Source: Chloroflexota bacterium (GTDB taxonomy: Bacteria > Chloroflexota > UBA11872 > VXOZ01). From it: 64,000 bases of DNA. The position numbers and the translations under genes were made by a program. Shown in pieces: positions 1 through 64,000 of this stretch (position 1 is its first letter; the number at the start of each line of letters is the position of its first letter). The notes below the pieces were generated by a model. It was not told where the DNA came from. It saw only the letters and a list, made by a program, of their open reading frames with translations, and did no database searches. The stretch is taken from assembly GCA_965220045.1 (NCBI GenBank), contig OZ244803.1, positions 2,711,901 to 2,775,900 of the forward strand. Direction: 5' to 3'.

Positions 1-157
1 GCGGAAGAGCGTGCACATGGCCGCATGTGAGCGGGTGACGTGAGAGGCGCATCACCCGCCACGTGGGAGCAATAACCATCTCTTGCACACACATCCCGTA
101 GTCGGGGCTCACCATCCGTCATCAGAATGTACCATCCGTCGTCTGGGCGCATTATCC

Positions 158-187
158 GTCATTCCCGCGAAAGCGGGAATCCATCTT
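158..187 (+). repeat. Family-A hairpin repeat (gtcattcccgcGAAAgcgggaatccatctt); left terminal inverted repeat of the GIY-YIG unit
   Basis: Perfect 8 bp stem attcccgc/gcgggaat with GAAA loop, read directly. It overlaps the stop codon of the GIY-YIG gene by 2 nt. The same 30-mer recurs about 20 times in the window. Confidence 0.9.
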
Positions 188-473
188 AAATGACTTCGTC
201 GTACACGTCCGCCCACTGTGGATTAGTCTTCTCGATCAACTCAATCTTCCACGCCCGGTTCCACTTCTTCAGCGCCTTCTCCCTCCTGATGGCGCTCTCC
301 ATAGTCTCATGTGCCTCGTACCAAACTAGCCTGTGGACACCGTATTCCTTTGTAAATCCCTCCACAAGGCCATTCTTGTGTTGCCAGACCCTCTGAGCGA
401 GGTTCGAGGTCACGCCGATGTAGAGGGTGCCTTTGGGGTTATTTGCAAGTATGTAGACACATGGTGTTTTCAT
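186..473 (-). CDS. GIY-YIG nuclease family protein (small UPF0213/YhbQ-like). The ORF track extends it to 521, but the likely start is the Met at 471-473 (MKTPCVYIL...)
   Basis: Motifs CVYIL...GTLYIGVTSNLAQRVWQHKNG...REKALKKW are the canonical GIY-YIG signature (GIY = VYI, YIG = YIG, conserved R and E). The frameshifted paralog at 1873-2159 is homologous only from this Met onward. Confidence 0.85.
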   Translation of the reverse strand: MKTPCVYILANNPKGTLYIGVTSNLAQRVWQHKNGLVEGFTKEYGVHRLVWYEAHETMESAIRREKALKKWNRAWKIELIEKTNPQWADVYDEVI

Positions 474-599
474 TACGGTGGTCTCTTCAAGTGTGCTTCC
501 GCTAGTTCTTAACGTTGACATGTGACAATGGGGTTGCCAGTACTTCGCTTATCGGCGAATCACTCCTTTTTGTTGAGGGCCAGCGCCCCACCCAGAGAC

Positions 600-629
600 A
601 AGATGGATTCCCGCTTTCGCGGGAATGAC
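600..629 (-). repeat. Family-A hairpin, inverted orientation; right terminal inverted repeat of the GIY-YIG unit
   Basis: aagatggattcccgctttcgcgggaatgac is the exact reverse complement of the 158-187 repeat. It lies 126 bp beyond the GIY-YIG start codon. Confidence 0.9.
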
Positions 630-865
630 AGACAAGACTAGCACTAGGCAGTATCGCAGGCATGTCCGCCTCATTCCATTTCCTACATGAGCGGCTGGTC
701 CACTTCAACTCTTCCTGGTATGCAAATCGTTCCGTCGACAGTTGCGCCATGCCGTTCATCCAAAGACAACCTTCGGGTGAACGGCCTAATAGCCTATTGC
801 TCGCTTGCCGGAACAGTGGCATTGCCTAGGCGTGACCCTACTGTACGCGGCGACAACTCTTATCC

Positions 866-895
866 GTCATTCCCGCGAAAGCGGGAATCCATCTT
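866..895 (+). repeat. Family-A hairpin (solo left end of a truncated GIY-YIG unit)
   Basis: Identical 30-mer preceded by the conserved flank tcttatccgtcattccc. Confidence 0.9.
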
Positions 896-985
896 AAATG
901 ACTTCGTCGTACACGTCCGCCCATTGTGGATTGGCCTTCTCGATCAACTCAATCTTCCACGACCGATTCCACTTTCCTTGTGCCT
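894..985 (-). pseudogene. 3' fragment of a GIY-YIG nuclease gene (about 30 C-terminal codons)
   Basis: About 90 bp near-identical to the 3' end of the gene at 186-473 (encodes ...HDRFHF...INSIFH...). Homology stops abruptly near 985. Confidence 0.7.
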
Positions 986-1226
986 CTACACCAACATTGG
1001 AACGTCCTGTTGGTCGGTTTAGCCGCCGACGGGTGATCTCTGTCGACCGGAGTACGTTCTCTATGGCCCTCCTCCGGGCCGATAGTGCGGCAATCCCATC
1101 TCTGGACTACTACGAAGGCTCCGCGAAGATGGCGGTCTCACCCCGCAAGCCATCCCGCGTTACAATTAAAACCAGGAATATAGCTTTCCTTGAGTCCATG
1201 ATGAGCCCAACGCGAGAGGAGGCACA

Positions 1227-1616
1227 GTGTCCAATAACGATTCAATTCCCGATGGCTACACGGCCGTTACCCCGTATCTTCTTGTCGAAGGCGCTGCCGG
1301 CTATCTTGACTTCTTGGCAGGTGCCTTTGGCGCCGTTGAGCGTCTGCGCGTCCCCATGCCCCAAGGCGGTATCGGTCATGCCGAGGTCGCGATCGATGGC
1401 GCTGTGCTGATGGTGGCCGATGCTTTCCCGCCGGACTTTCCTGCCACCACATCGCTGCTACACCTTTACGTTGGGGATGTGGACAGCATCCATGCCCAAG
1501 CGGTTGAAGCGGGCGCGACGTCACTGGCCGAACCTTCCGACGAGGAATATGGCGACCGCATGGCCCGCGTCCTCGACCCCTGCGGCAACCAGTGGATAAT
1601 CGCCACGGCGGGCTGA
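1227..1616 (+). CDS. VOC (glyoxalase/bleomycin resistance/PhnB-like) family protein
   Basis: TPYLLVEGAAGYLDFLAGAFGAVE...GGIGHAEVAIDGAVLMVAD... matches the PhnB-like VOC fold pattern. RBS-like GAGGAGG upstream. Confidence 0.75.
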   Translation: MSNNDSIPDGYTAVTPYLLVEGAAGYLDFLAGAFGAVERLRVPMPQGGIGHAEVAIDGAVLMVADAFPPDFPATTSLLHLYVGDVDSIHAQAVEAGATSLAEPSDEEYGDRMARVLDPCGNQWIIATAG

Positions 1617-1825
1617 GAGCAAGGGCCTTGACCGTCTGACCTCATCGAGTTTGGGCCGTGGTGCGGAACCTGCCCAAGAGCGCTTGCAGACCGTAGCTGC
1701 TTTCCTGCCATGCTTTGTGCCCTTCGCTCTCGCATTGAGGCGCGCCGGCTATCCCAGAAATCTACACCAATTCTCTCCCGAGAGAGTTGAGAATTCTATG
1801 CCGCGCCTCGCGCCGCCTCTTATCC

Positions 1826-1874
1826 GTCATTCCCGCGAAAGCTCGCCCCCGCTTGGGGGCGCGGAATCCATCTT
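1826..1874 (+). repeat. Family-A hairpin variant carrying a nested GC-rich palindrome (ctcgcccccgcttgggggcgcg) inserted in the loop
   Basis: gtcattcccgcgaaag-[ctcgcccccgcttgggggcg]-cggaatccatctt. The same kind of insert occurs at 39020-39068 and 41118-41166. Confidence 0.85.
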
Positions 1875-2159
1875 AGATGAATTCGTCGTACAAGTCCGCC
1901 CATTTTGGATTAGCCTTCTCGATCAACTCAATCTTCCACGCCCGGTTCCACTACTTGAATGCCTTCTCCCTGCAAGTAGCGCTTTACATAGTCTCATGCA
2001 ATTCATACCAGACTAACCTGTGAACACCGTACTGCTTCGTAAACCCCTCAACCTATCATTCTTATGCTGCCACACCCGCTGGACGAGGTTGGATATTACA
2101 CCGATGTAAAGGGTGCCATTGGGGTTATTCGCAAGTTTGTAGACGCAGGGCGATTTCAT
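1873..2159 (-). pseudogene. Frameshifted GIY-YIG nuclease paralog
   Basis: Reverse strand translates MKSPCVYKLANNPNGTLYIGVISNLVQRVWQHKND, then loses frame. The 3' end (...EFI*) and the downstream hairpin are conserved with the 186-473 copy. Confidence 0.75.
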
Positions 2160-2285
2160 GCGAGGGTAAAATTCTTACCAAACTGACAAAGAAAGACCCA
2201 TTTGCAGCATAGGCACCACGTTTTGAAGTCAAGTATTGTCTTAGCTTGCCAAGGAGTCACATTGGTCTTTACAGCAACCCAAGAG

Positions 2286-2315
2286 AAGATGGATTCCCGC
2301 TTTCGCGGGAATGAC
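2286..2315 (-). repeat. Family-A hairpin, inverted orientation (right terminal inverted repeat of the degenerate unit)
   Basis: aagatggattcccgctttcgcgggaatgac. It is again exactly 126 bp from the pseudogene start codon, as in the intact unit. Confidence 0.9.
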
Positions 2316-2550
2316 GGACATAAGAAGCTATCTGTAAAGCAGGGCAAGAATCCGCCCTGCCATTCGTAGCGCTAGGGCTCATCCACCGCTCTTTAGCTTG
2401 ATCAACCAAATAGCGCGCCCTTAAGAATCACCATGCCGCTCACCCAGAACTATATTCCGGGTGAACGGCACAGTACCAAGCTCTTATCAATGTTGGCGGC
2501 GGTCTAGCCTAACGTTCGTACGCTACTACCGCACCACACATTCAATCTTT

Positions 2551-4217: not shown

Positions 4218-4245
4218 GTAGGGGCACGATATATCGTGCCCCTAC
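4218..4245. repeat. Family-B 28 bp perfect palindrome gtaggggcacgatatatcgtgcccctac
   Basis: Perfect inverted repeat read directly. 4 copies in the window (4218, 9172, 18026, 39677), all intergenic. Confidence 0.9.
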
Positions 4246-4254
4246 GGGTGCGCA

Positions 4255-7643: not shown

Positions 7644-9071
7644 CTAGTCCTCCGTGATCCGCTGGACGTAGCGGCGCAATTCCAATTCCAAAGCGTCGCC
7701 CACGTCGGCGTGCTCAGCCAGCACGTTTTGCTGGTCGTAGGGATCATCGGGCCGGTGGTAGAGTTCGGGTTCTGTCCGTTCCAGCCCATTGAGGAAATAG
7801 AGGTAGCGCCACTCGTGGTTTTGGATTGACCAGCAGCCCTGGTAGTGGCCCGAATAGGCGTAATCGCGCACGCTCGCCGCCTCCCCGCGCAGCAACGGCA
7901 GCACGCTGACGCCGTGCATCGCTACGTCCTTGCGTCCCACCACCAAATCTTGCGGGAAAGTGCCGGCGGTTTGCGGCGCGATGTACGCCAACGGCAGCGG
8001 CGTGGCAATGTCCAGCGCGTCCAACACCGTCGGCATAAGGTCGGTGTGCTGCACCAGCGCCTCCACGCGCGGCGGCGGCTCCGGCATGGATGCCCGCATT
8101 TCCGCCGGCAGCTTGAGCACCCAGGGCACGCGCACGAGTTCCTCGTAGTTCCACGGACGCGCCTTGCGCACGATGCCGTGCTCGCCGAACGGCTCGCCGT
8201 GGTCGCTCGTCCACATGATCAGGGTATCGTCGTAGATGCCCAGATCACGAATGTGGTCGAGCAGAATGCCCACCCATTTGTCCACGTACGTTACTTTACC
8301 CGCGTAAAGTTCCATCGTGCGTTGGAGTTCCGCCGGCGTGATGTAGCCCTCTACCATTCCCGGCACCGGATCGATGAGCTCCTGGCCGCTGTAGCCGGGG
8401 GTCTTGTACATGGACCAGAAAGGTTCCGGCGGGTCCCACGGCTCGTGGGGGTCGAAGTAGTCCACCCACAGGAAGATCTTGTCGCGCACGCCTTTCTCCT
8501 TCACCGCGCGGTCCAGCCACTGCATGGCGACTTTCGTCACCTGCGGCGTGAAGAAGTCTTCCTCGACCTTGAAATGAGCGCGGTTGCGCAGGTACTGCAC
8601 GTAGTACTCTTCCCAGAGCGCGTCAGTGTCGTCGCCCCGCAGCCGGTGCCAGCGGCTGAGGTCTACCGGCACATCCTCCGTCACCCACGGGTCAGTTGAG
8701 TTGCCGCGCACGAATTCAACCGTGCTAAACCCGCGGCCGCAATTGAAGACCGGCTTGTGCAGGTGGAAGGTATCGGTGATGAGCGCCGAGGTATAGCCTT
8801 TGTCCCAGAGGACTTCCGCTAGCAGGTAGTCGTCCAGCTTAAAGGGCTGCCAGGGACGGAACGGAAAGTGCGTGCGGCCTGTCCAGAAGACCGTCCGCGC
8901 CGGCACCGTGGGCATGCTGTCGGCGTAGGCGTGCAAGAAAGCCGTGCCGTCGGCGGCGAGGCGCTCCAGGTTGGGCGTTGCCACCTTCGTGCCGTGGTAG
9001 TCGTAACAGAGCGGGTCCAGGCTGGTGTGGTCGGCGCGGAGACTATCGGTGCAGATGACGATGATATTCAT
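7644..9071 (-). CDS. Sulfatase-family (alkaline-phosphatase superfamily) protein with Thr at the formylglycine position
   Basis: IIVICTDSLRADH...TPNLERLAADGTAFLHAYADSMPTVPARTVFWTGR. It aligns to the FGly motif of the neighbouring sulfatase but reads T-V-P-A-R instead of C-V-P-A-R. Confidence 0.75.
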   Translation of the reverse strand: MNIIVICTDSLRADHTSLDPLCYDYHGTKVATPNLERLAADGTAFLHAYADSMPTVPARTVFWTGRTHFPFRPWQPFKLDDYLLAEVLWDKGYTSALITDTFHLHKPVFNCGRGFSTVEFVRGNSTDPWVTEDVPVDLSRWHRLRGDDTDALWEEYYVQYLRNRAHFKVEEDFFTPQVTKVAMQWLDRAVKEKGVRDKIFLWVDYFDPHEPWDPPEPFWSMYKTPGYSGQELIDPVPGMVEGYITPAELQRTMELYAGKVTYVDKWVGILLDHIRDLGIYDDTLIMWTSDHGEPFGEHGIVRKARPWNYEELVRVPWVLKLPAEMRASMPEPPPRVEALVQHTDLMPTVLDALDIATPLPLAYIAPQTAGTFPQDLVVGRKDVAMHGVSVLPLLRGEAASVRDYAYSGHYQGCWSIQNHEWRYLYFLNGLERTEPELYHRPDDPYDQQNVLAEHADVGDALELELRRYVQRITED

Positions 9072-9171: not shown

Positions 9172-9199
9172 GTAGGGGCACGATATATCGTGCCCCTAC
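9172..9199. repeat. Family-B 28 bp palindrome
   Basis: gtaggggcacgatatatcgtgcccctac, identical to the 4218 copy. Confidence 0.9.
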
Positions 9200-9321
9200 G
9201 TCACGTGGGCAAATGTCCCTACGTCATGCAGTCAATTTCCCAATGTCATGGCTTAAAATAAATAGGCCTTGGCCCCGCTAGGAGACCCCCCTTGCAACTG
9301 CGGCTATAGGGGCAAGTCTTA

Positions 9322-9522: not shown

Positions 9523-9629
9523 CTACCTCGCTGCGGCGAGGGTTACGCAAAGGTCTCCGCAGGGAGTGATTCCCTCACCTCAACAACACTGCATTGACGG
9601 GCGCGCGTGTGCGCTATGCGGGAAACCGC

Positions 9630-9792
9630 GCAGGTTACAAACCTACGCTACCCCAGGTTACAGACCCTCGCTGCCGCAGGTTACAGACCTATGCTACCCC
9701 CAGGTTGCTCACCTTCGCCGCCGCAGGTTACAAACCTGCACTACCCCAGGTTACAGACCTTCGCTACCGCAGCATGCAAACCTTCGCTACCC
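9630..9792 (+). repeat. Tandem array of 7 abutting 23 bp units (caggttacaRacctNcgctaccc), derived from the family-C palindrome
   Basis: The units abut with no spacers, so this is not a CRISPR array. Unit consensus matches the solo family-C elements gcaggttgcaaacctgcgctaccgg. Confidence 0.85.
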
Positions 9793-15405: not shown

Positions 15406-15480
15406 GCCGACGTAGCTCAATGGCAGAGCAGCGGTTTTGTAAACCGCAGGCTATGGGTTCGAATCCCTTCGTCGGCTCCA
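15406..15480 (+). tRNA. tRNA-Thr (anticodon UGU), CCA encoded
   Basis: Cloverleaf folds by hand: acceptor gccgacg/cgtcggc, D stem gctc/gagc, anticodon stem gcggt/accgc with loop ttTGTaa, T loop ttcgaat, 3' CCA. Confidence 0.8.
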
Positions 15481-17891: not shown

Positions 17892-17950
17892 CAGGTCGTC
17901 GTTTCAGATAGTTCATCCGTCGTTGTTTAAGATTGTTCATCCAAAGGACT

Positions 17951-17980
17951 GTCATTCCCGCGCAAGCGGGAATCCATCTT
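17951..17980 (+). repeat. Family-A hairpin (GCAA loop variant)
   Basis: gtcattcccgcGCAAgcgggaatccatctt. Confidence 0.85.
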
Positions 17981-18025: not shown

Positions 18026-18053
18026 GTAGGGGCACGACATGTCGTGCCCCTAC
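18026..18053. repeat. Family-B palindrome (loop variant acatgt)
   Basis: gtaggggcacgacatgtcgtgcccctac. Confidence 0.85.
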
Positions 18054-18188
18054 GTCAAGAACCCGGCCCGCACTCCCATGTCCAGGGTCAACGCACACTT
18101 TTATTCATGCGCGGGCGAGCATCTATACTTTAGTGAGACACACCTTTGTATTTACCAACCTTCCCGTAAATAGGAGGTATCAACCGCC

Positions 18189-33251: not shown

Positions 33252-33314
33252 TGGGATTTGTTGAACTGTTAGCTAAATTGTTAAATGAACCAAATGCCAA
33301 GGTGCAGACAATCC

Positions 33315-33344
33315 GTCATTCCCGTGCAAACGGGAATCCATCTT
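33315..33344 (+). repeat. Family-A hairpin (stem/loop variant cccgtGCAAacggg)
   Basis: gtcattcccgtgcaaacgggaatccatctt. Compensatory change on both stem sides keeps pairing. Confidence 0.85.
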
Positions 33345-33639
33345 CTCCGGATACAGGCTGGATCCCTCGGTTTCCCAACCGCGCGTTCGCTGGAATGACT
33401 GCCACGACGTTAGCCGACATCTTCATTCCCTTGTGCGGCCTGGGCAAGGCCAAGGTGATTTCTGTTTTCGCGGAAATCTATCTTCACGCCTTGCCAATGG
33501 ACGCCGCGGCGGGTGGTCTTGCGCAGTCATGACTTTGGTACTCCGGTTTCAACCGCTCTCTTTGTCGCGCCTTGGAGCAAAGCGACAGAAAAGTGCCTAC
33601 ACACGCTTTAGATTCCGCGAATCCTGTTCGACGCCACGC

Positions 33640-34160
33640 TCGGAATTGTAGATGTTGACTAATTCGTTGACAGAATCTCCTGTCCACTAGAAAGCGCTGG
33701 GAGTCCATGTCATTCCGAGCGCAGCGAGGAATCTAGGGTCCGAGTTGCTCGGAGTTGGATTGGCTATAGACTCTAGATTCCTCACTTCGCTACGCTCCGT
33801 TCGGAATGACATCCTATTGGGTCTTAATTGCAGGCAAAACCACCGATTGTCACCAATTCAGTTGACGAATTACCTGACATTTACAATTCCGAGCGCAGCG
33901 TCGAACAAGGTTCGCGGAATCTAGTGCCATGCTCTAGGCAGTCATTAGCCCCAGCACACGAGATTCCTCACTCCGCTGCGCTCCGTTCGGAATGACATAC
34001 CATTAGGTCTTACTCGCAGGCAGAACCACCGCTTGTTGTCACCAATTCTGTCAACGAATTACCTGACATCTACAGGAATGACATGTGTTGTGGACGTATG
34101 CAAGCGAGACCCACCGCTCATTTTCCCATTTCTGTCAACGAAACTCTCAATACTTACAGG
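33640..34160. mobile_element. Cluster of solo IS481-family terminal-repeat ends and family-F hairpins (MITE-like derivatives)
   Basis: At least four copies of the IS end motif ctgtcaacgaattacctgacatttaca / tgtagatgttgactaattcgttgacag, each abutting a hairpin half (gtcattccgagcgcagcgaggaatc). A roughly 110 bp segment is repeated at 33770-33875 and 33965-34075. Confidence 0.7.
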
Positions 34161-35339: not shown

Positions 35340-35700
35340 TTCTCTTGCCCCAAGAGGCGGGGGACAAGCCCCAGCGCCACAAGGATTGCATCCGACTGCA
35401 CTAGTTGAGAGTCTAAGCATGCGTACCTTGTTCCGGTAGCACAGGTTTGAAACCTGTGCCTGCAATCGAACGTTTCCGCTACCCTGAAACCCGTCCGACA
35501 GACGCCCTACACGGCATCCGCCTTTGCCTCAAGAGGCGGGGGACAAGCCCCCGCGCTACAAGGAGTGCGCCTAATCGGAGGTCTCTCGAGGCCAGGCGCC
35601 ACACCTTCGTCTCCGGTAGCACAGGTTTGCAACCTGTGCCCGACACCATGCGATGCCGTTTTGCGAATCGCCCGGCCTGTAGACATCCGACGCGGCCAAC
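35340..35700 (+). repeat. Roughly 180 bp tandem duplication built from a family-D motif (caagaggcgggggacaagcccc.gcgc.acaagga) followed by a family-C palindrome (ccggtagcacaggtttgMaacctgtgcc)
   Basis: Units at about 35351-35470 and 35529-35650, read directly. Family D recurs at 41228-41261. Confidence 0.8.
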
Positions 35701-38868: not shown

Positions 38869-38897
38869 GTCATTCCGAGTGTAGCGAGGAATCTAGA
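38869..38897 (+). repeat. Family-F hairpin (gtcattccgagtgtagcgaggaatctag), a stem variant of family A
   Basis: Same flanks gtcattcc...ggaatc with a different internal stem. Confidence 0.75.
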
Positions 38898-39019
38898 GTG
38901 TTCGTTTGCAACTCTAGGCTCATTAAGCAACTAGAATTGCCGGCATAGGGATCGATCCAAGACCTCACAACGTATGCGACCACTAATCTCAGTCTATTGG
39001 GCGCGGCCGGTCTGCTGAG

Positions 39020-39068
39020 AAGATGGATTCCCCGCCCCCGCGCGGGGGCGAGCTTTCGCGGGAATGAC
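39020..39068 (-). repeat. Family-A hairpin with nested GC-rich palindrome insert
   Basis: Reverse complement reads gtcattcccgcgaaagctcgcccccgcgcgggggcggggaatccatctt. Confidence 0.85.
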
Positions 39069-39676: not shown

Positions 39677-39704
39677 GTAGGGGCACAATATATCGTGCCC
39701 CTAC
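39677..39704. repeat. Family-B palindrome (1 mismatch)
   Basis: gtaggggcacaatatatcgtgcccctac. Confidence 0.85.
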
Positions 39705-39716
39705 CACATTGGAGGT

Positions 39717-41117: not shown

Positions 41118-41166
41118 GTCATTCCCGCGCACGCTCGCCCCCGCAGGGGGGCGCGGAATCCATCTT
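41118..41166 (+). repeat. Family-A hairpin with nested GC-rich palindrome insert
   Basis: gtcattcccgcgcacgctcgcccccgcaggggggcgcggaatccatctt. Confidence 0.85.
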
Positions 41167-44821: not shown

Positions 44822-46054
44822 TTAGGCCTCGTGCCACAGGGGCGCAATCCTCGCCCTATACTCCTCTTCGATCAGGGCCGCATATTCGGGCCAGACACCC
44901 ATCAGCGCATCGAGCCGGTCATTGTTCATGTCTTCGTGGGGCGTGATGGCGTCGTAGAGTCCGGTGACGATGCGGTTTGCTGCCGGACTGAGAACACCCT
45001 CCAGATTCTTCAAGACTGATCTAGCGTCCGCGCCGCCGTCATCCACCAAAGCCTTGAAGAATTGCGTGCTCAGAGCCTCTATCTCTTCGCCGAGATGCAT
45101 GCGCAGCCACTCGCCGTCGAAGAGATCCGGGCGGGCGTGCCGGAAGAAGACGGCAATGCCGAAGCGCCCGCGTATGCCCGCCAGCGCCTGCAACGCATAG
45201 CGTAGTCGTTGCTGTCGTGCCGCCTGAACGGAGTCTTGCTCGGGCAATTGTTGACAGAACGCCGTCACCAGGTCTCGCAATTCGTAGACGATCTGTAAGA
45301 GCTCGTCAGCAATGGCGGCGCACTCTTCGTCCGACATCTCCACGCGGTAGTCCGCCGCGACGATGGCGTTCAGCCTATCCAGTAGCTCCCGGTTGTCTAC
45401 CACTTCAGGCAATACCTTGAGCGCCGCCGGTTTGGTAGGCACCCACGCGTTGCGCAGCAGGCCGCACGCCAGCTTGGCCGCCGGCAGGAACCAGTGGGAC
45501 AGCGCGCCGTACACGGGATAATACGGCAGGTACTCGGGCAGCAGGTTGATGGGCGGATCGAACTGCTCCGCGCGCGGGACCAGATAGATGTTGAACTTGC
45601 CGCAGGCCTCGTGCTGCTGGGCTTGGGTGAATGGCGGCTCCTGCGCCGCCAGCACGTCATCGAGCGCATTCGCCGCGCCGCCGATGCGGTGCCAGTCGCG
45701 CACTTCGCCCATGAGTGGTAGAAGCTGCCGCGCCTCACGCGGAGAACAGATGAATCCTGGCGGGTGCTCCAAAATGCGGGCGTAGTGCGGCGCCTCTTCC
45801 AGCAATTCCACATACGACTCGCCGCCCGCGCGGCTGATTGCCAGCCAGGTCTCGGCGTCGGGGGCGTCCGCCACTGAGCGCAAGTCGTGATCGCTGAAAC
45901 CGGGCGTCAGCGTGCCCAGGTGATGCTTGCAGTAGACAGCGGTATCAAGACCGGGCACGTGCTCGGCAATATAGCGACCAAGCTCGGTGCCAATATAGCG
46001 GTAATCGTCGAGTGTGAGTGTCATGTCATGAATCGTTGTCTGTAGAATCGTCAT
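44822..46054 (-). CDS. Hypothetical protein. Possible minimal nucleotidyltransferase-like N-terminal motif (G-x10-S-D-H-D-L)
   Basis: Only LGTLTPGFSDHDL resembles a Pol-beta-type NTase motif. The rest is helical with no family match I can make by eye. Confidence 0.3.
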   Translation of the reverse strand: MTILQTTIHDMTLTLDDYRYIGTELGRYIAEHVPGLDTAVYCKHHLGTLTPGFSDHDLRSVADAPDAETWLAISRAGGESYVELLEEAPHYARILEHPPGFICSPREARQLLPLMGEVRDWHRIGGAANALDDVLAAQEPPFTQAQQHEACGKFNIYLVPRAEQFDPPINLLPEYLPYYPVYGALSHWFLPAAKLACGLLRNAWVPTKPAALKVLPEVVDNRELLDRLNAIVAADYRVEMSDEECAAIADELLQIVYELRDLVTAFCQQLPEQDSVQAARQQRLRYALQALAGIRGRFGIAVFFRHARPDLFDGEWLRMHLGEEIEALSTQFFKALVDDGGADARSVLKNLEGVLSPAANRIVTGLYDAITPHEDMNNDRLDALMGVWPEYAALIEEEYRARIAPLWHEA

Positions 46055-46078
46055 TCCCGCGAAAGCGGGAATCCATCT
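46050..46078 (+). repeat. Family-A hairpin
   Basis: gtcattcccgcgaaagcgggaatccatct. A stem-variant copy (gactccggctttcgccggagtgac) follows at 46150-46173. Confidence 0.85.
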
Positions 46079-46265
46079 CCGTTGATTTTCTGGCCTTCGG
46101 CCCCGACTGGTCTATGGGGTAGGAGTACTTTGTTTGAGTCCCCACCCTAGACTCCGGCTTTCGCCGGAGTGACGGATTGTTAGGGACAACTCAACCTCTC
46201 GGCCCCATCATCAGTCTGACCAATAGCGAGAGTCACCTGTTGTCGCTTCTTGCACACGCCGGAGG

Positions 46266-48300: not shown

Positions 48301-48456
48301 GAATCTCGATCCTTTACATCTTCAGGAGATCATCTCTCGTTTAGATACTCATGTGGAGCATTTCGCCAAGAGTCGTTTCCCATTTACGTTCACAAGCTTA
48401 CCGAACGTCTAGTCAGTCCAATTGAAACGAAGCAAAACACAAAAGGGTTGAGTTTC

Positions 48457-48523
48457 GTCATTCCGGCGAAAGCCGGAATCCATCTTCGCAGCAAACCTGG
48501 ACTCCGGCTTTCGCCGGAGTGAC
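48457..48523. repeat. Two back-to-back hairpins: family-A stem variant (gtcattccggcgaaagccggaatccatctt) and inverted stem variant (ggactccggctttcgccggagtgac)
   Basis: The stem changes cccgcg to ccggcg and gcggga to gccgga are compensatory. Flanks are conserved. Confidence 0.85.
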
Positions 48524-48639
48524 AAGCCTGGCCGCCTGTTTCATCCCCACCATTCCACGCCGGCGGGGCACAAGGCCCAGCGCTACATCCCAAGAGCCAA
48601 ACCCCCAAGAGCTACACTATCAAGAGCTGTGCTCCGGTT

Positions 48640-55298: not shown

Positions 55299-55359
55299 CG
55301 CGCAGCGGGGCTGAGGAAGAAATCGGGCAAGAGACCCTAGGTAGTGTTGACATTTCGCC

Positions 55360-55389
55360 GTCATTCCCGCGCAAGCGGGAATCCATCTT
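55360..55389 (+). repeat. Family-A hairpin (GCAA loop)
   Basis: gtcattcccgcgcaagcgggaatccatctt. Confidence 0.85.
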
Positions 55390-55539
55390 CACGCTGCGCA
55401 GATTGTCCTGCTGCGAGGGGGAGCGAGTGACCGTGCGCGCAAGGATTGTCTTTGTCACAGGCCTTTTCTCCCACGCTGCGGAGCAAAACAACCGTGAATC
55501 CCGCACAAACACTTGAGATTCCTCGCTTTCGCTCGGAAT

Positions 55540-56599
55540 TGTAAGTGTCAGGTAATTCGTTGACAGATCTGGTAGAACATTGATGAGTGTCAATCACCAG
55601 ATCTGGAGGCAACTGATGCGGGATAATAGTAGTGACAAGACCATTGAACGGAACCTCATGCAGAAGTGGCGTTTCCTCATCGCCGAGTACGAACGGGTCA
55701 AGGCCAAGCAGCATCCCCAGTTCCGCTTCCTGCAGGACTTCTATGCGTTCCATGGTACCAGTCGCCAGACCTTCGCCAAGTACTACAACCGTTTCTGTCA
55801 GACGCGCAGCGATGACGCCCTGCTGCCGCGCAAGCGCGGTCCCAAGTGGAAGAGCCGCCGCACCTTGCCCTACATCGAGCAGAAGGTGCTGGAGCAGCGC
55901 CGCAAGGGTATCAACCGCTATGAGATCTGTGCCATACTCAAACCGGTACTCAAAGCGCACACACCCTCACCCTCCACCATCTACGCCATTAGCAAGCGCC
56001 ATGGGCTCAACCGCCTGAAACCGGCCATGAAACAAGCCAAGCGCACCATCATCAAGACCCGCGCGGGCGAACTGGGGCATCTGGACTGCCATTACCTCAG
56101 CCGCGACCTGCTCCTGGACAGCTCCCAGCGCTACTACCTGGTCTCCGTGCTCGATGCCTGCACCCGTCTGGCCTGGGCTGAAGTGGTGCCTGACCTCAAG
56201 AGCCTCAGCGTCATGTTCGCCGCGCTCAAGAGCATCAACCTGCTCAACGTTGAGTACGGCATCCAGTTCGAAGCCATCCTCACCGATAACGGTCCTGAGG
56301 TGGCGGCACGCACGAAACCGGCGCAGCATCCCTTCGAGCGCATGCTGCTGGAGCTCGGCATCAAACACCGCTACACCCGGCCCTACCGACCCCAGACCAA
56401 CGGCAAGATCGAACGCTTCTGGCGGACCCTGAACGACGACCTGATCGAAGGCACGACGTTCGAGAACCTGACGGAGTTCCAAAACGAACTGATGCAATAC
56501 CTCCTGTACTACAACACGGAAAGACCACACCAAGGCCTGAAGGGGAATACGCCTCTTCAAGCTCTGCAAAATCTGTCAACGAATTAGTCAACATTTACA
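55540..56599 (+). mobile_element. IS481-family insertion sequence, complete. 29 bp imperfect terminal inverted repeats and a 5 bp target duplication GGAAT, inserted into a family-F hairpin
   Basis: Left IR tgtaagtgtcaggtaattcgttgacagat, right IR (reverse complement) tgtaaatgttgactaattcgttgacagat. Flanks ...cggaat|IS|ggaatgac reconstitute the hairpin gtcattccgagcgaaagcgaggaatc. Confidence 0.85.
55580..56587 (+). CDS. IS481-family DDE transposase (rve integrase core)
   Basis: N-terminal HTH region, then ...HLDCHYL...YYLVSVLDACTRLAWAEVV......TDNGPE... and RPYRPQTNGKIERFWRTLNDDL...YYNTERPHQGL, characteristic of IS481/rve. Confidence 0.85.
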   Translation: MMSVNHQIWRQLMRDNSSDKTIERNLMQKWRFLIAEYERVKAKQHPQFRFLQDFYAFHGTSRQTFAKYYNRFCQTRSDDALLPRKRGPKWKSRRTLPYIEQKVLEQRRKGINRYEICAILKPVLKAHTPSPSTIYAISKRHGLNRLKPAMKQAKRTIIKTRAGELGHLDCHYLSRDLLLDSSQRYYLVSVLDACTRLAWAEVVPDLKSLSVMFAALKSINLLNVEYGIQFEAILTDNGPEVAARTKPAQHPFERMLLELGIKHRYTRPYRPQTNGKIERFWRTLNDDLIEGTTFENLTEFQNELMQYLLYYNTERPHQGLKGNTPLQALQNLSTN

Positions 56600-56727
56600 G
56601 GAATGACATCAAATGTCAACAGAGCCTAGACACTGCTCAACAGCCGGCATCCCTTTGGAGTGAACAACACCCGCCGTGTGGCGGGTGTTTGCGGTTCTCC
56701 GCTTTCGATGGCCCGGCGCCTACTTGC

Positions 56728-57795
56728 TCAGTGCCTCAGTGACCTGATGATTGGCCCTGCCGCTAGCAACTCGGCAAGATGTCCCGCCCGGTCCACACGC
56801 CCGAAGTAGTTACAGGGAATCACTTCAAACGGTCCCAAGCGGCGCATTACTTCATCGAGCAGCAGGTTTTGGCCGATGTTGTCGGTGGCGTAGTGGGGCA
56901 GGCGCACCAGAGCGATTCCGTGCTCCTGGCAAGCGGCCACGCTTGCCGCCCCCGCCGAAACTTGAACCACAGTATTCACTCCCGCCTGCGCCAGCAGAGG
57001 AAAAGCGGTCGGTGGGTAGGCATAGCCGCCGGCGAACTTGGCATGAATGCGGCCGACGGGCTGCGCCGCGTCGCCCACCATTATGCGGGGTACCGCGCCG
57101 ATTTGCGCGGCTTCTTGCATTTCAGGAATCGTTAGCATGAGCTCAACCACGTCGCCTACCGTCCGCGGCCGCTCCCGGGCAAAGAGTGCATTCAGGTATT
57201 GGCGGTGCGCCAAATCTACCGGCGTGTGGATGCAGGCCAATGGATACCCGAGCAGCTTAGCCGTATCGGGCCCAATGCGGTGCACATCCTCATGCTCGCG
57301 CAGACGCTGGGCCATAAAGTCGAAAATGCACGCGCGGGCCTCATCTGCCGGCACCCCTTCCCACACGAGATAGTCCGCGTTTATCTCCATGAAGTCCGCG
57401 ACGAGCGAGGCGGAGATGCCGACGCTGTTGGTGTGATGTGAGATAAAGGCATCAATCTTTGTACCTTTGGCAGCAAGCTGCGCGCCAAGCAGCAACTCTT
57501 GCACGTGCAGGTTGATGCCGACCAACGCGGTGCGGATGGGCGTATTGTCCGGCCCGTTGGATATCCGCACGTCACCGTAAGGATTGCGAAAGCGTTCCTT
57601 GTCGTAAATCTCCTGCTGCCAGGCGGGCAACGCGGCATACTCGTCGCTCCGCTGCTGCAACTGGCGCTCTATGGTCGCCTGGCCGCGCGGGTCCAACTCC
57701 CGGCCAATTGCGATGGAGGTCTCATACATTTCGCGCAAAGTCACGACACTATTCCTATGCTTCCGTACATGCGCTGCGATACTTCCAGTCGTCAC
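56728..57795 (-). CDS. NIF3/DUF34-like dinuclear-metal-center protein (tentative), paralog 1
   Basis: ...VGINLHVQELLLGAQLAAKGTKIDAFISHHTNS... and C-terminal ...LPHYATDNIGQNLL... mirror the YbgI-type HH and GHxATE motifs. Confidence 0.45.
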   Translation of the reverse strand: MTTGSIAAHVRKHRNSVVTLREMYETSIAIGRELDPRGQATIERQLQQRSDEYAALPAWQQEIYDKERFRNPYGDVRISNGPDNTPIRTALVGINLHVQELLLGAQLAAKGTKIDAFISHHTNSVGISASLVADFMEINADYLVWEGVPADEARACIFDFMAQRLREHEDVHRIGPDTAKLLGYPLACIHTPVDLAHRQYLNALFARERPRTVGDVVELMLTIPEMQEAAQIGAVPRIMVGDAAQPVGRIHAKFAGGYAYPPTAFPLLAQAGVNTVVQVSAGAASVAACQEHGIALVRLPHYATDNIGQNLLLDEVMRRLGPFEVIPCNYFGRVDRAGHLAELLAAGPIIRSLRH

Positions 57796-58000
57796 TCCCG
57801 CGAAAGCGGGAGTCTATCTGCGAAGATTAAGATGGATTCCCGCTTTCGCGGGAATGACGGGTTGTTGCGTTCTTCACTGCGGCAAACACCGCCACGCCAA
57901 AAGCGGACTTGCTAGTATGGATTCCCGCTTTCGCGGGATTGACGGGTTGCTGCGTTCTTCACCATGGCAAACACTGTCACGCCAAGAGCGGACAAGCTAG
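57791..58000. repeat. Repeat cluster: three hairpins (family A and a stem variant gtcactcccgcgaaagcgggagtc) plus a roughly 85 bp tandem duplication
   Basis: gacgggttgYtgcgttcttcacNNNggcaaacacYgYcacgccaaRagcggacWWgctag occurs twice (57856-57915, 57941-58000), each preceded by an inverted hairpin. Confidence 0.85.
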
Positions 58001-63641: not shown

Positions 63642-63924
63642 GGCATCGAACAGCCCAGCGGTCTTCTACTCGGGCGGGCGTTGCAGGGCATCTTCAACGC
63701 GCCGCAGAGAAGCTTGGGTCGCGTGCAATTCATCCAGTAGTTGATCCCTCGTCGCGGGGGATCCCAGCGTGCGCTGGGGTTCTCGCTTCACTTCGTCCAT
63801 GGTGCTTACCACAACGGCTATAGACAGATTTGCCCCGATGGACGTTACGGCAATTGTATGTGTTGAGTAATTCGTTGACAGAATCTCCCGTCCACTTGAC
63901 CGTGCTGAAAGGTCACGTCATTCC

Positions 63925-64000
63925 TGTAAGTGTCAGGTAATTCGTTGACAGATCTGGTAGAACATTGATGAGTGTCAATCATCAGATCTGGAGGCAACTG
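63925..64000 (+). mobile_element. Second copy of the IS481-family element, truncated by the window edge. Again inserted directly after gtcattcc of a hairpin
   Basis: tgtaagtgtcaggtaattcgttgacagatctggtagaacattgatgagtgtcaatcaTcagatctggaggcaactg is identical (1 mismatch) to 55540-55615. A solo IS end lies just upstream at 63856-63890. Confidence 0.85.

Follow-up and report, generated by a model that had tools for sequence, protein, structure and literature searches.

A GIY-YIG nuclease gene bracketed by inverted hairpins in a Chloroflexota genome, a probable instance of the Ssn/SRM system

The stretch of 64,000 nucleotides analysed here in its whole length, hereafter the window, comes from a Chloroflexota bacterium (assembly GCA_965220045.1, contig OZ244803.1, positions 2,711,901 to 2,775,900 of the forward strand) and carries close to its first letter a short GIY-YIG nuclease gene enclosed between inverted hairpin repeats. 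We assign a probability of about 85% to the reading that this locus is the Chloroflexota instance of the Ssn/SRM system, in which the protein would be a site-specific endonuclease of single-stranded DNA (ssDNA) and the hairpins its cognate SRMs. The Ssn family was defined as single-domain GIY-YIG proteins of ~94 amino acids (aa) belonging to CDD cd10448, GIY-YIG_unchar_3 (Chenal et al. 2025, Nat Commun 16:2388, PMC11893778). SsnA of N. meningitidis (NMV_0044/NMB0047, 94 aa) acts on NTS, the oriented 28-nt sequence CGTCATTCCCGCGMAVGCGGGAATCYRG to which the repeat dRS3 was extended (PMC11893778). NTS-like motifs, the SRMs, are found across bacteria, with at least one nearby in 71% of homologues and copies on both sides in 42%, and an ssn gene is present in 81% of the genomes with more than 200 SRMs (PMC11893778). 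An earlier note on this DNA, made from the sequence alone, had taken the pairing of a GIY-YIG gene with such hairpins for undescribed, and was overtaken on this point by the work of Chenal et al. in 2025 (PMC11893778). The association is real but already published in 2025; what is new is the Chloroflexota member of the system.

The gene belongs to a cluster at positions 158-2315. Perfect copies of the 30-mer GTCATTCCCGCGAAAGCGGGAATCCATCTT are found at 158-187 and 866-895 on the plus strand and at 600-629 and 2286-2315 on the minus strand, and with up to 3 mismatches the window holds 11 copies versus none in 100 dinucleotide-preserving shuffles. Between the first two inverted copies lies an intact open reading frame (ORF) of 95 aa (186-473, minus strand), whose TAA stop codon (186-188) overlaps the hairpin unit by 2 nt. 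Unit 2 (1826-2315) has the same layout with a pseudogene, in which a 1-nt deletion divides the tblastn match in two (codons 1-40 and 37-95); its left hairpin is broken by the 20-nt nested hairpin TCGCCCCCGCTTGGGGGCGC at 1843-1862. Unit 3 keeps the hairpin and only codons 66-95 of the gene (897-986). The earlier note had described this arrangement correctly: the 95-codon GIY-YIG gene in inverted 30-bp hairpins, the overlap of the left hairpin with the stop codon, the frameshifted second unit closed by its inverted hairpin, and the third unit reduced to a hairpin and 90 bp of the gene 3' end. The features of the cluster are the following.

157..187, plus strand: SRM/NTS hairpin 3' of the intact ssn gene; exact 30-mer and SRM pattern match, CGTC end away from the gene.
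186..473, minus strand: intact ssn gene, 95 aa, single-domain GIY-YIG, assigned to the Ssn family by PF01541 and homology to SsnA.
474..599, minus strand: 126-bp spacer from the upstream hairpin to the start codon.
600..630, minus strand: SRM hairpin upstream of the intact ssn gene, CGTC/TGTC end away from the gene.
865..895, plus strand: SRM hairpin of the truncated unit; 30-mer and SRM pattern.
897..986, minus strand: ssn 3' fragment, codons 66-95 (tblastn, 83%).
1825..1874, plus strand: composite SRM downstream of the pseudogene, with TCGCCCCCGCTTGGGGGCGC nested in the 3' half of the stem.
1876..2159, minus strand: ssn pseudogene, frameshift after codon ~36 (tblastn and alignment).
2160..2285, minus strand: 126-bp spacer of the pseudogene unit, with no sequence relationship to 474-599.
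2286..2316, minus strand: SRM hairpin upstream of the pseudogene; 30-mer and SRM pattern.

Protein sequence comparison led to the family assignment. The intact gene product matches the Pfam GIY-YIG domain (PF01541, E=2e-17) over residues 5-77 as its single domain, in agreement with the family named in the earlier note, which had proposed this hidden Markov model search as a check. BLASTP aligns it without gaps over 92 aa to a 94-aa N. gonorrhoeae orthologue of SsnA with 62% identity (E=4e-43), and its residues Y7, Y18 and E65 fall on Y6, Y17 and E64 of the gonococcal ORF. The length of this ORF and the presence of Y6, Y17 and E64 at the published positions lead us to infer that it is SsnA; it was taken from two 2.17-Mb N. 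gonorrhoeae chromosomes filed as plasmids in PLSDB, NZ_CP119140.1 (L083; L numbers designate the contigs and loci compared) and NZ_CP119142.1. The substitutions Y6A, Y17A and E64A abolish cleavage by SsnA (PMC11893778). Chenal et al. recognised homologues by E<1e-10 to N. meningitidis SsnA, and the E=4e-43 given above is to the gonococcal orthologue. Ssn homologues are abundant: 7,999 of 8,000 scored candidates are significant and thousands are 93-99 aa long, the best 120 of the 8,000 sharing 76-92% identity and being nearly all of 95-96 aa. NCBIfam has no specific model for the protein, the best match being TIGR01453 (group I intron endonuclease) with 21.4 bits versus a cut-off of 56.05. The PDB search returned no Ssn structure, a weak hit to UPF0213 (1ZG2, E=3e-4, 24 bits) and one spurious WD40 match, and a search of a phage collection gave only distant GIY-YIG genes with 33-35% identity.

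The hairpin leads to the same system, as it equals NTS at 27 of 28 positions. It combines a stem of 8 bp and a loop of 4 nt with a C/T-GTC tag and a CCA tail (motif CCGTCATTCCCGCGAAAGCGGGAATCCATCTT). By these sequence features the window hairpins class with the CGTC-1 repetitive extragenic palindromes (REPs), which include Neisseria dRS3/NIME; CGTC REPs were described in five phyla, Chloroflexota not among them, and were said to 'seem lacking a dedicated transposase' (Di Nocera, De Gregorio, Rocco 2013, BMC Genomics 14:522, PMC3733652). It took until 2025 for their GIY-YIG partner to be recognised. The hairpin folds as ssDNA with -9.1 kcal/mol (z=-3.7), and its copies show the compensatory stem changes CCGGC/GCCGG, CCCGT/ACGGG and ACTCCC/GGGAGT. 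The published SRM search string, HGTCWYN(0-2)YYVSBRHN(0-5)WNVSBRGN(0-2)RNCYNB, finds the two copies bracketing the gene at 157-184 (plus) and 603-630 (minus). Over the whole window this pattern gives 13 hairpins, with 0.62 expected from shuffles, and the count rises to 21 if one adds the composite and variant sub-families built on the frame GTCATTCC...GGAATC(C/T)A. The copies outside the cluster number 7 at up to 3 mismatches, 9 by the SRM pattern and 16 with the composite and variant sub-families; solo intergenic copies thus exist as first noted, but their number, put at about 20, is 7 to 16 depending on the definition. All of these sit between long ORFs. Five head-to-head doublets have their GTCA ends outward, which is the polarity of the gene-flanking pair.

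The gene and the hairpin are associated well beyond the window. A scan of one genome per species yielded 294 loci, of which the best 80, with 85 homologues, were used for counting. These 80 loci come from Chloroflexota/Dehalococcoidia metagenome-assembled genomes (MAGs), Binatia, Beta- and Gammaproteobacteria, Planctomycetota, Nitrospirota, Bacteroidota and Actinomycetota, with Alicycliphilus denitrificans, Nitrosomonas oligotropha and a Pseudoxanthomonas sp. as isolates, and their proteins are 66-85% identical with no clear gap between phyla. In a hairpin census of these relatives requiring at least 7 of 8 stem pairs, a hairpin lies within 200 bp of the gene in 74 of the 85 homologues (87%) and hairpins lie on both sides in 39 (46%), reproducing the published 71% and 42%. 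The refuting outcome named in the earlier note, GIY-YIG paralogues not preferentially flanked by the hairpin, is thus contradicted, and the association is genuine. Near the gene hairpins are 20-fold denser (2.49/kb) than in the other 1.27 Mb (0.125/kb). The CGTC end points outward in 45 of 59 upstream and 61 of 85 downstream copies of the best 80 loci. The downstream copy, GGATTCCCGCTTTCGCGGGAATGAC or a compensated variant, typically begins 0-26 bp after the gene, and the inverse upstream copy is typically found 7-14 bp or 111-138 bp before it. The stop-codon/hairpin junction TAAGATGGATTCCC recurs in unrelated genomes. The host of the window is probably of a symbiont-type lineage, as related contigs come from MAGs including SB0662_bin_44 and 'Candidatus Poriferihabitaceae'; SRM-rich genomes are enriched in symbionts (PMC11893778).

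These data bear on the view that a GIY-YIG gene lies by chance among hairpins that serve as ordinary terminators or mRNA stabilisers of REP type, to which we give next to no credence. The hairpins are indeed intergenic and often lie just 3' of ORFs, as REPs typically do, but neither the enrichment beside the gene, seen over 1.27 Mb of flanking DNA from many phyla, nor the recurrence of junction TAAGATGGATTCCC is expected from chance. The terminator scan detected no terminators at the hairpin sites, where no T-run follows the stem, and the Rfam scan of the window found no RNA family at the hairpins, its sole match being a tRNA gene at 15406-15477. Binding of the motif has been shown directly for four Ssn homologues (PMC11893778). 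The 20-fold enrichment together with the published binding effectively refutes a coincidence.

SsnA binds NTS only as ssDNA and on one strand only, nicks it a few nt on the 5' side, and does not act on double-stranded DNA (dsDNA) or RNA (PMC11893778). By homology, the Chloroflexota Ssn would bind the extruded or unwound hairpin, exclusively single-stranded and exclusively on the CGTCATTCCC...GGGAATCC (CGTC) strand, and would hydrolyse the backbone a few nt 5' of the CGTC tag. With CGTC ends outward, the predicted nicks fall just outside each end of the gene unit and on opposite strands. The region concerned, (C)TTATCC/TTGTCT, is conserved between units. Solo copies and head-to-head doublets would provide further binding and nicking sites. 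Beside gonococcal ssnA (L083), the two nearest NTS face the gene with their CGTC ends, the reverse of the window polarity, so that the polarity of the flanking motifs is not universal. In N. meningitidis SsnA lowers transformation by NTS-bearing DNA ~5-fold (PMC11893778), and this restriction, in which incoming SRM-bearing ssDNA is cut and recombines less into the chromosome, is the sole demonstrated biological role of Ssn.

Several points weigh against assigning the locus to the Ssn/SRM system. The cd10448 assignment rests on homology to the Neisseria protein, and the nuclease activity of the window protein is predicted from homologues outside Chloroflexota. Several hairpin sub-families (ATTCCCGC, ACTCCGGC, ATTCCGAGCG and the composites) coexist in the window with only one intact ssn gene, and not all of them need be substrates; specificity is known to differ between Ssn/SRM pairs (PMC11893778). 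The role in Neisseria may not transfer to this organism, and the Ssn/SRM account leaves the 124-127 bp spacing of the upstream hairpin unexplained.

This spacing characterises the Chloroflexota sub-family with a motif ending in CCATCTT. The spacers at 474-599 and 2160-2285 are both exactly 126 bp long and, past their first ~12 nt, show a gapless identity of 0.21 versus a shuffled mean of 0.27, which bears out the equal spacing and unrelated sequence reported for the two units at the outset. A distance of 124-127 bp from motif to ATG is found in 10 units on 6 contigs, L001, L003, L021, L052 and L082 besides that of the window, and these spacers fall into ~7 sequence families no more alike than shuffled DNA. 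They have no conserved columns beyond the first ~10 nt, a promoter search in them found no sigma-70-like site, and RNA folding of 7 spacers gave no significant or shared structure (z -1.4 to +1.2). In proteobacterial relatives the upstream motif stands just 7-14 bp from the ATG. A constraint of whatever kind on the 124-127 bp distance seems likely: at dS (synonymous divergence) >1, spacers that share an origin and evolve neutrally would appear unrelated, yet insertions and deletions should have blurred their length.

The context of the cluster documents its history. The order SBP-[ssn units]-acetyltransferase-GH38 is found in at least 9 Chloroflexota genomes with 1-4 units each. The intact ssn gene has a ratio of nonsynonymous to synonymous divergence (dN/dS) of 0.05-0.10 versus eight relatives and is accordingly functional and under strong purifying selection. 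Copies differ by a dS of 0.5-1.7, which with the conserved context makes them old residents. L081 is the 3.37-Mb contig holding the window, and L082, obtained from the same sample, is a sister contig with 93.6% identity over 7.5 kb; L082 has one whole intact ssn unit more. The pseudogene of unit 2 has orthologues in L082, with the same split match, and in L003, where it is intact. Homology between units runs ~70 bp past the downstream hairpin (L082 7840-8020 versus L081 9500-9680, 91.7%), no direct repeats (target-site duplications) flank the units, and the sequence just outside the two hairpins belongs to the inverted repeat itself. Local duplication is favoured over transposition because homology passes the hairpins and target-site duplications are lacking, and the cluster appears from its sequence to be an old, syntenic, locally duplicating array rather than a group of recent transpositions.

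Several ssn units have a long hairpin, GCCGTTCACCCGG...CCGGGTGAACGGC, of up to 20 pairs ~100 bp beyond their own hairpins (window 2431-2473 and ~752-790; L001 ~8951-8990 and 9690-9730; L004 ~9598-9640). Its recurrence there indicates that the module repeated in tandem extends past the hairpin-to-hairpin unit. A solo SRM just outside the window, in the interval from the acetyltransferase to the GH38 gene (L081 11103-11128), has the same place in 5 of the related genomes aligned there. Its orthologues in L082, L002, L006 and L008, from genomes 80-90% identical, differ in stem variants, and two have a nested insert; separate locus maps show this SRM absent in L001. Orthologous intergenic sites differ in solo-hairpin content between relatives. 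No clean filled-versus-empty site is seen among these relatives, which are 80-90% identical in genes and unalignable in intergenic DNA; the one close pair, L081 and L082, differs in an entire gene unit and not in solo copies. Nucleotide conservation is higher in the 3' third of the gene (~0.86 vs 0.77), which also encodes the most conserved peptide, REKALKKWNRAWKIELIEK, and this leaves the signal ambiguous as a trace of gene conversion next to the hairpin.

Chenal et al. called NTS-ssnA-NTS insertion sequence (IS)-like, drew a parallel with IS200/IS605, REPs and bacterial interspersed mosaic elements (BIMEs), and proposed domestication (PMC11893778). SRM-ssn-SRM could on these lines be an autonomous mobile element in which Ssn spreads hairpins and doublets, the analogue of REP-associated tyrosine transposases (RAYTs) and REPINs and the 'missing transposase' of CGTC REPs; we regard this as unlikely. 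The IS-like build with perfect 30-nt inverted ends speaks for it, as do the five doublets, which with their gene-flanking polarity look like gene-less derivatives, and the composite sub-family, whose several copies in several genomes show that variants propagate. Identity across phyla (66-79%) overlaps that within Chloroflexota (67-85%), implying horizontal spread, and the survey of CGTC REPs found no transposase for them (PMC3733652), an IS-like origin of NTS-ssnA-NTS having been raised by Chenal et al. (PMC11893778). The expected chemistry is less favourable, since SsnA cuts one motif orientation (PMC11893778), so that an inverted pair would be nicked once per strand, no single strand would be excised as in IS200/IS605, and no route to excision and integration is obvious. 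Intact, frameshifted and truncated copies stand side by side, the sister strain has one more intact unit, and relatives differ in solo hairpins at orthologous sites, as mobility would have it; however, the missing target-site duplications, with outside flanks that are part of the inverted repeat, and the ~70 bp of homology beyond the hairpin fit unequal crossing-over and not end-defined transposition. A syntenic locus at dS >1 and a solo hairpin kept between acetyltransferase and GH38 in 5 relatives point to slow turnover, and diverged relatives offer no clean filled-versus-empty site. GIY-YIG enzymes moreover hydrolyse DNA, and we know of none with a covalent intermediate or strand-transfer activity. 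The evidence leans mildly against Ssn as a REP-mobilising enzyme. In a speculative form to which we give similarly low odds, an ssDNA nickase would take the part of RAYT: nicks just outside the unit would start copying or gene conversion through the replication and repair machinery of the host, giving rise to doublets and solo hairpins, and the spacer length, kept over unrelated sequence in at least 7 lineages, would reflect a ruler-like constraint of this process. If true, Ssn would be the long-sought mobilising enzyme of CGTC-type REPs. Of the REPIN-like unit proposed in the earlier note, the non-random layout and the likeness to REP/RAYT stand; the enzyme is not a Y1 transposase and the repeats are not GTAG-tagged.

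Many GIY-YIG genes encode homing endonucleases, and ssn could be a selfish gene of this type, copied between the hairpins of existing doublets by break-induced gene conversion. Gene-less head-to-head doublets with 7-100 bp between their arms have the right polarity to receive it, and homology between L081 and L082 stops abruptly at two points, 5 bp into the upstream hairpin and right at the ATG, as in a cassette exchange. We nevertheless find it improbable, more so than a mobile element: the protein is without a DNA-binding domain and stays at 21.4 bits on TIGR01453 where 56 is the cut-off, and arms of 30 nt are very short for recombinational repair. Characterised Ssn do not cut dsDNA and cut motif DNA with or without the gene, the opposite of homing logic (PMC11893778). 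We privilege the hypothesis that the locus is an Ssn/SRM pair resident in an old array.

The SRMs found elsewhere in the window are these.

17950..17980, plus strand: solo SRM with GCAA loop, ~60 bp past the end of an ORF (convergent or unidirectional).
33314..33399: head-to-head SRM pair; 33314-33344 (plus) with compensatory CCCGT/ACGGG stem, 33359-33399 (minus) a composite variant.
33709..33810: head-to-head pair of the variant sub-family GTCATTCCGAGCGCAGCGAGGAATCTA.
38869..39068: variant SRM 38869-38895 (plus) and composite SRM 39024-39068 (minus), CGTC ends outward.
41118..41162, plus strand: solo composite SRM.
46049-46079 (plus) and 46147-46174 (minus): head-to-head SRM pair, the second copy a ACTCCGGC/GCCGGAGT variant.
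48456..48524: head-to-head SRM doublet with 7-nt spacer.
55359..55389, plus strand: solo SRM; 30-mer and SRM pattern.
57790..57943: head-to-head doublet 57790-57820 (plus)/57829-57859 (minus), and a copy at 57914-57943 (minus) in an 85-bp tandem duplication.

A single long hairpin can form from the doublet at 48456-48524 (-27.8 kcal/mol, z=-7.5), and the GTCATTCCGAGCGCAGCGAGGAATCTA variant folds weakly as ssDNA. In the composite sub-family a GC-rich hairpin, CGCCCCC-N4-GGGGGCG, is nested always at one place within the 3' half of the SRM stem (window 1825-1874, 39024-39068 and 41118-41162; L003 5787-5831; L004 9826-9870; L006 10291-10335; L082 6240-6284). Found both beside ssn genes and solo in several genomes, the composite hairpin itself propagates. 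A different insert is seen at 33359-33399, and a 50-nt form with a GCCTGCCCCG...CGGGGC insert occurs in L004, L006 and L008. A repeat family of 45-80 nt, TGTAAGTGTCAGGTAATTCGTTGACAGATCTGG..., present in both orientations (33609-33923, 34036-34085, 55530-55615, 56561-56621 and 63852-64000), opens with CGTCATTCC, the first half of the SRM, and may be an element built on an SRM half-site in the manner of miniature inverted-repeat transposable elements. Alongside the CGTC-type hairpins there is a second palindromic family, GTAG-tagged, GTAGGGGCACGATATATCGTGCCCCTAC (4218-4249, 9172-9203, 18026-18057 and 39677-39708); palindromes with this tag are a class usually linked to RAYT transposases. The segment 9629-9815 consists of ~8 tandem copies of a 23-24-nt unit, CGCAGGTTACAAACCTACGCTACC, each with a small palindrome, and related single hairpins, GCACAGGTTTGAAACCTGTGC, are found at 35432, 35612, 43550 and 61259.

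The main use of these results is in annotation: genes labelled 'GIY-YIG nuclease family protein' and the hairpins scattered through these Chloroflexota genomes would be annotated as Ssn/SRM pairs. They add as context the SRM abundance in Chloroflexota (21 hairpins in 64 kb), the syntenic arrays of varying unit number and the purifying selection. They also touch the question of whether Ssn spreads CGTC-type REPs or is a domesticated enzyme acting on them, for which the Chloroflexota arrays, with their variable spacers of fixed length and composite hairpins, could serve as comparative data.

Several known systems share traits with this locus. The ssn units differ from insertion sequences in having no flanking direct repeats and in inter-unit homology that continues past the inverted ends. 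The GIY-YIG homing endonucleases (I-TevI, I-BmoI, Seg), YhbQ/UPF0213 and Slx1 share the catalytic fold and engage in selfish or structure-specific DNA transactions. Homing enzymes of this fold have ~250 aa with a separate DNA-binding domain and cut dsDNA, whereas the window protein has 95 aa, no second domain and a score below the TIGR01453 cut-off; to UPF0213 (PDB 1ZG2) it shows the weak similarity given above. TnpA of IS200/IS605 likewise recognises subterminal hairpins on ssDNA with strand specificity. In those elements both ends are cut on the same strand and rejoined via a covalent 5'-phosphotyrosine intermediate, while Ssn makes a single nick at each motif and lacks ligation chemistry.

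REP/RAYT systems and REPINs, reportedly the subject of work by Nunvar (2010), Bertels and Rainey (2011) and Ton-Hoang (2012), resemble the locus in the small gene flanked by inverted hairpin repeats, in the abundant inverted doublets foldable into one long hairpin, and in an enzyme recognising hairpins in ssDNA, a property predicted by homology for the window protein. They differ in that RAYT is an HUH Y1 transposase, whereas the window gene is GIY-YIG with no Y1_Tnp match in the Pfam search, and in that the gene-flanking repeats are tagged CGTC, not GTAG, the GTAG family of the window not being beside the ssn gene. With CGTC-1 REPs the hairpins share the CGTC/TGTC tag, the 8-bp stem, the 4-nt loop, the CCA tail, the intergenic position and the mostly head-to-head dimers.

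The closest system is Ssn/SRM itself (Chenal et al.), alike in protein size, in the single GIY-YIG domain with its catalytic Tyr/Tyr/Glu, in the motifs on both sides of the gene and in the many further intergenic copies. The locus departs from it in its host phylum, Chloroflexota, unmentioned in the main text of Chenal et al.; in the motif tail, CCATCTT versus CYRG; and in its outward CGTC ends, inward at gonococcal ssnA. Its upstream motif stands at a fixed 124-127 bp and not adjacent to the gene, and loci of the window type, known here from sequence, are tandem arrays of 1-4 units with pseudogenes and composite nested hairpins.

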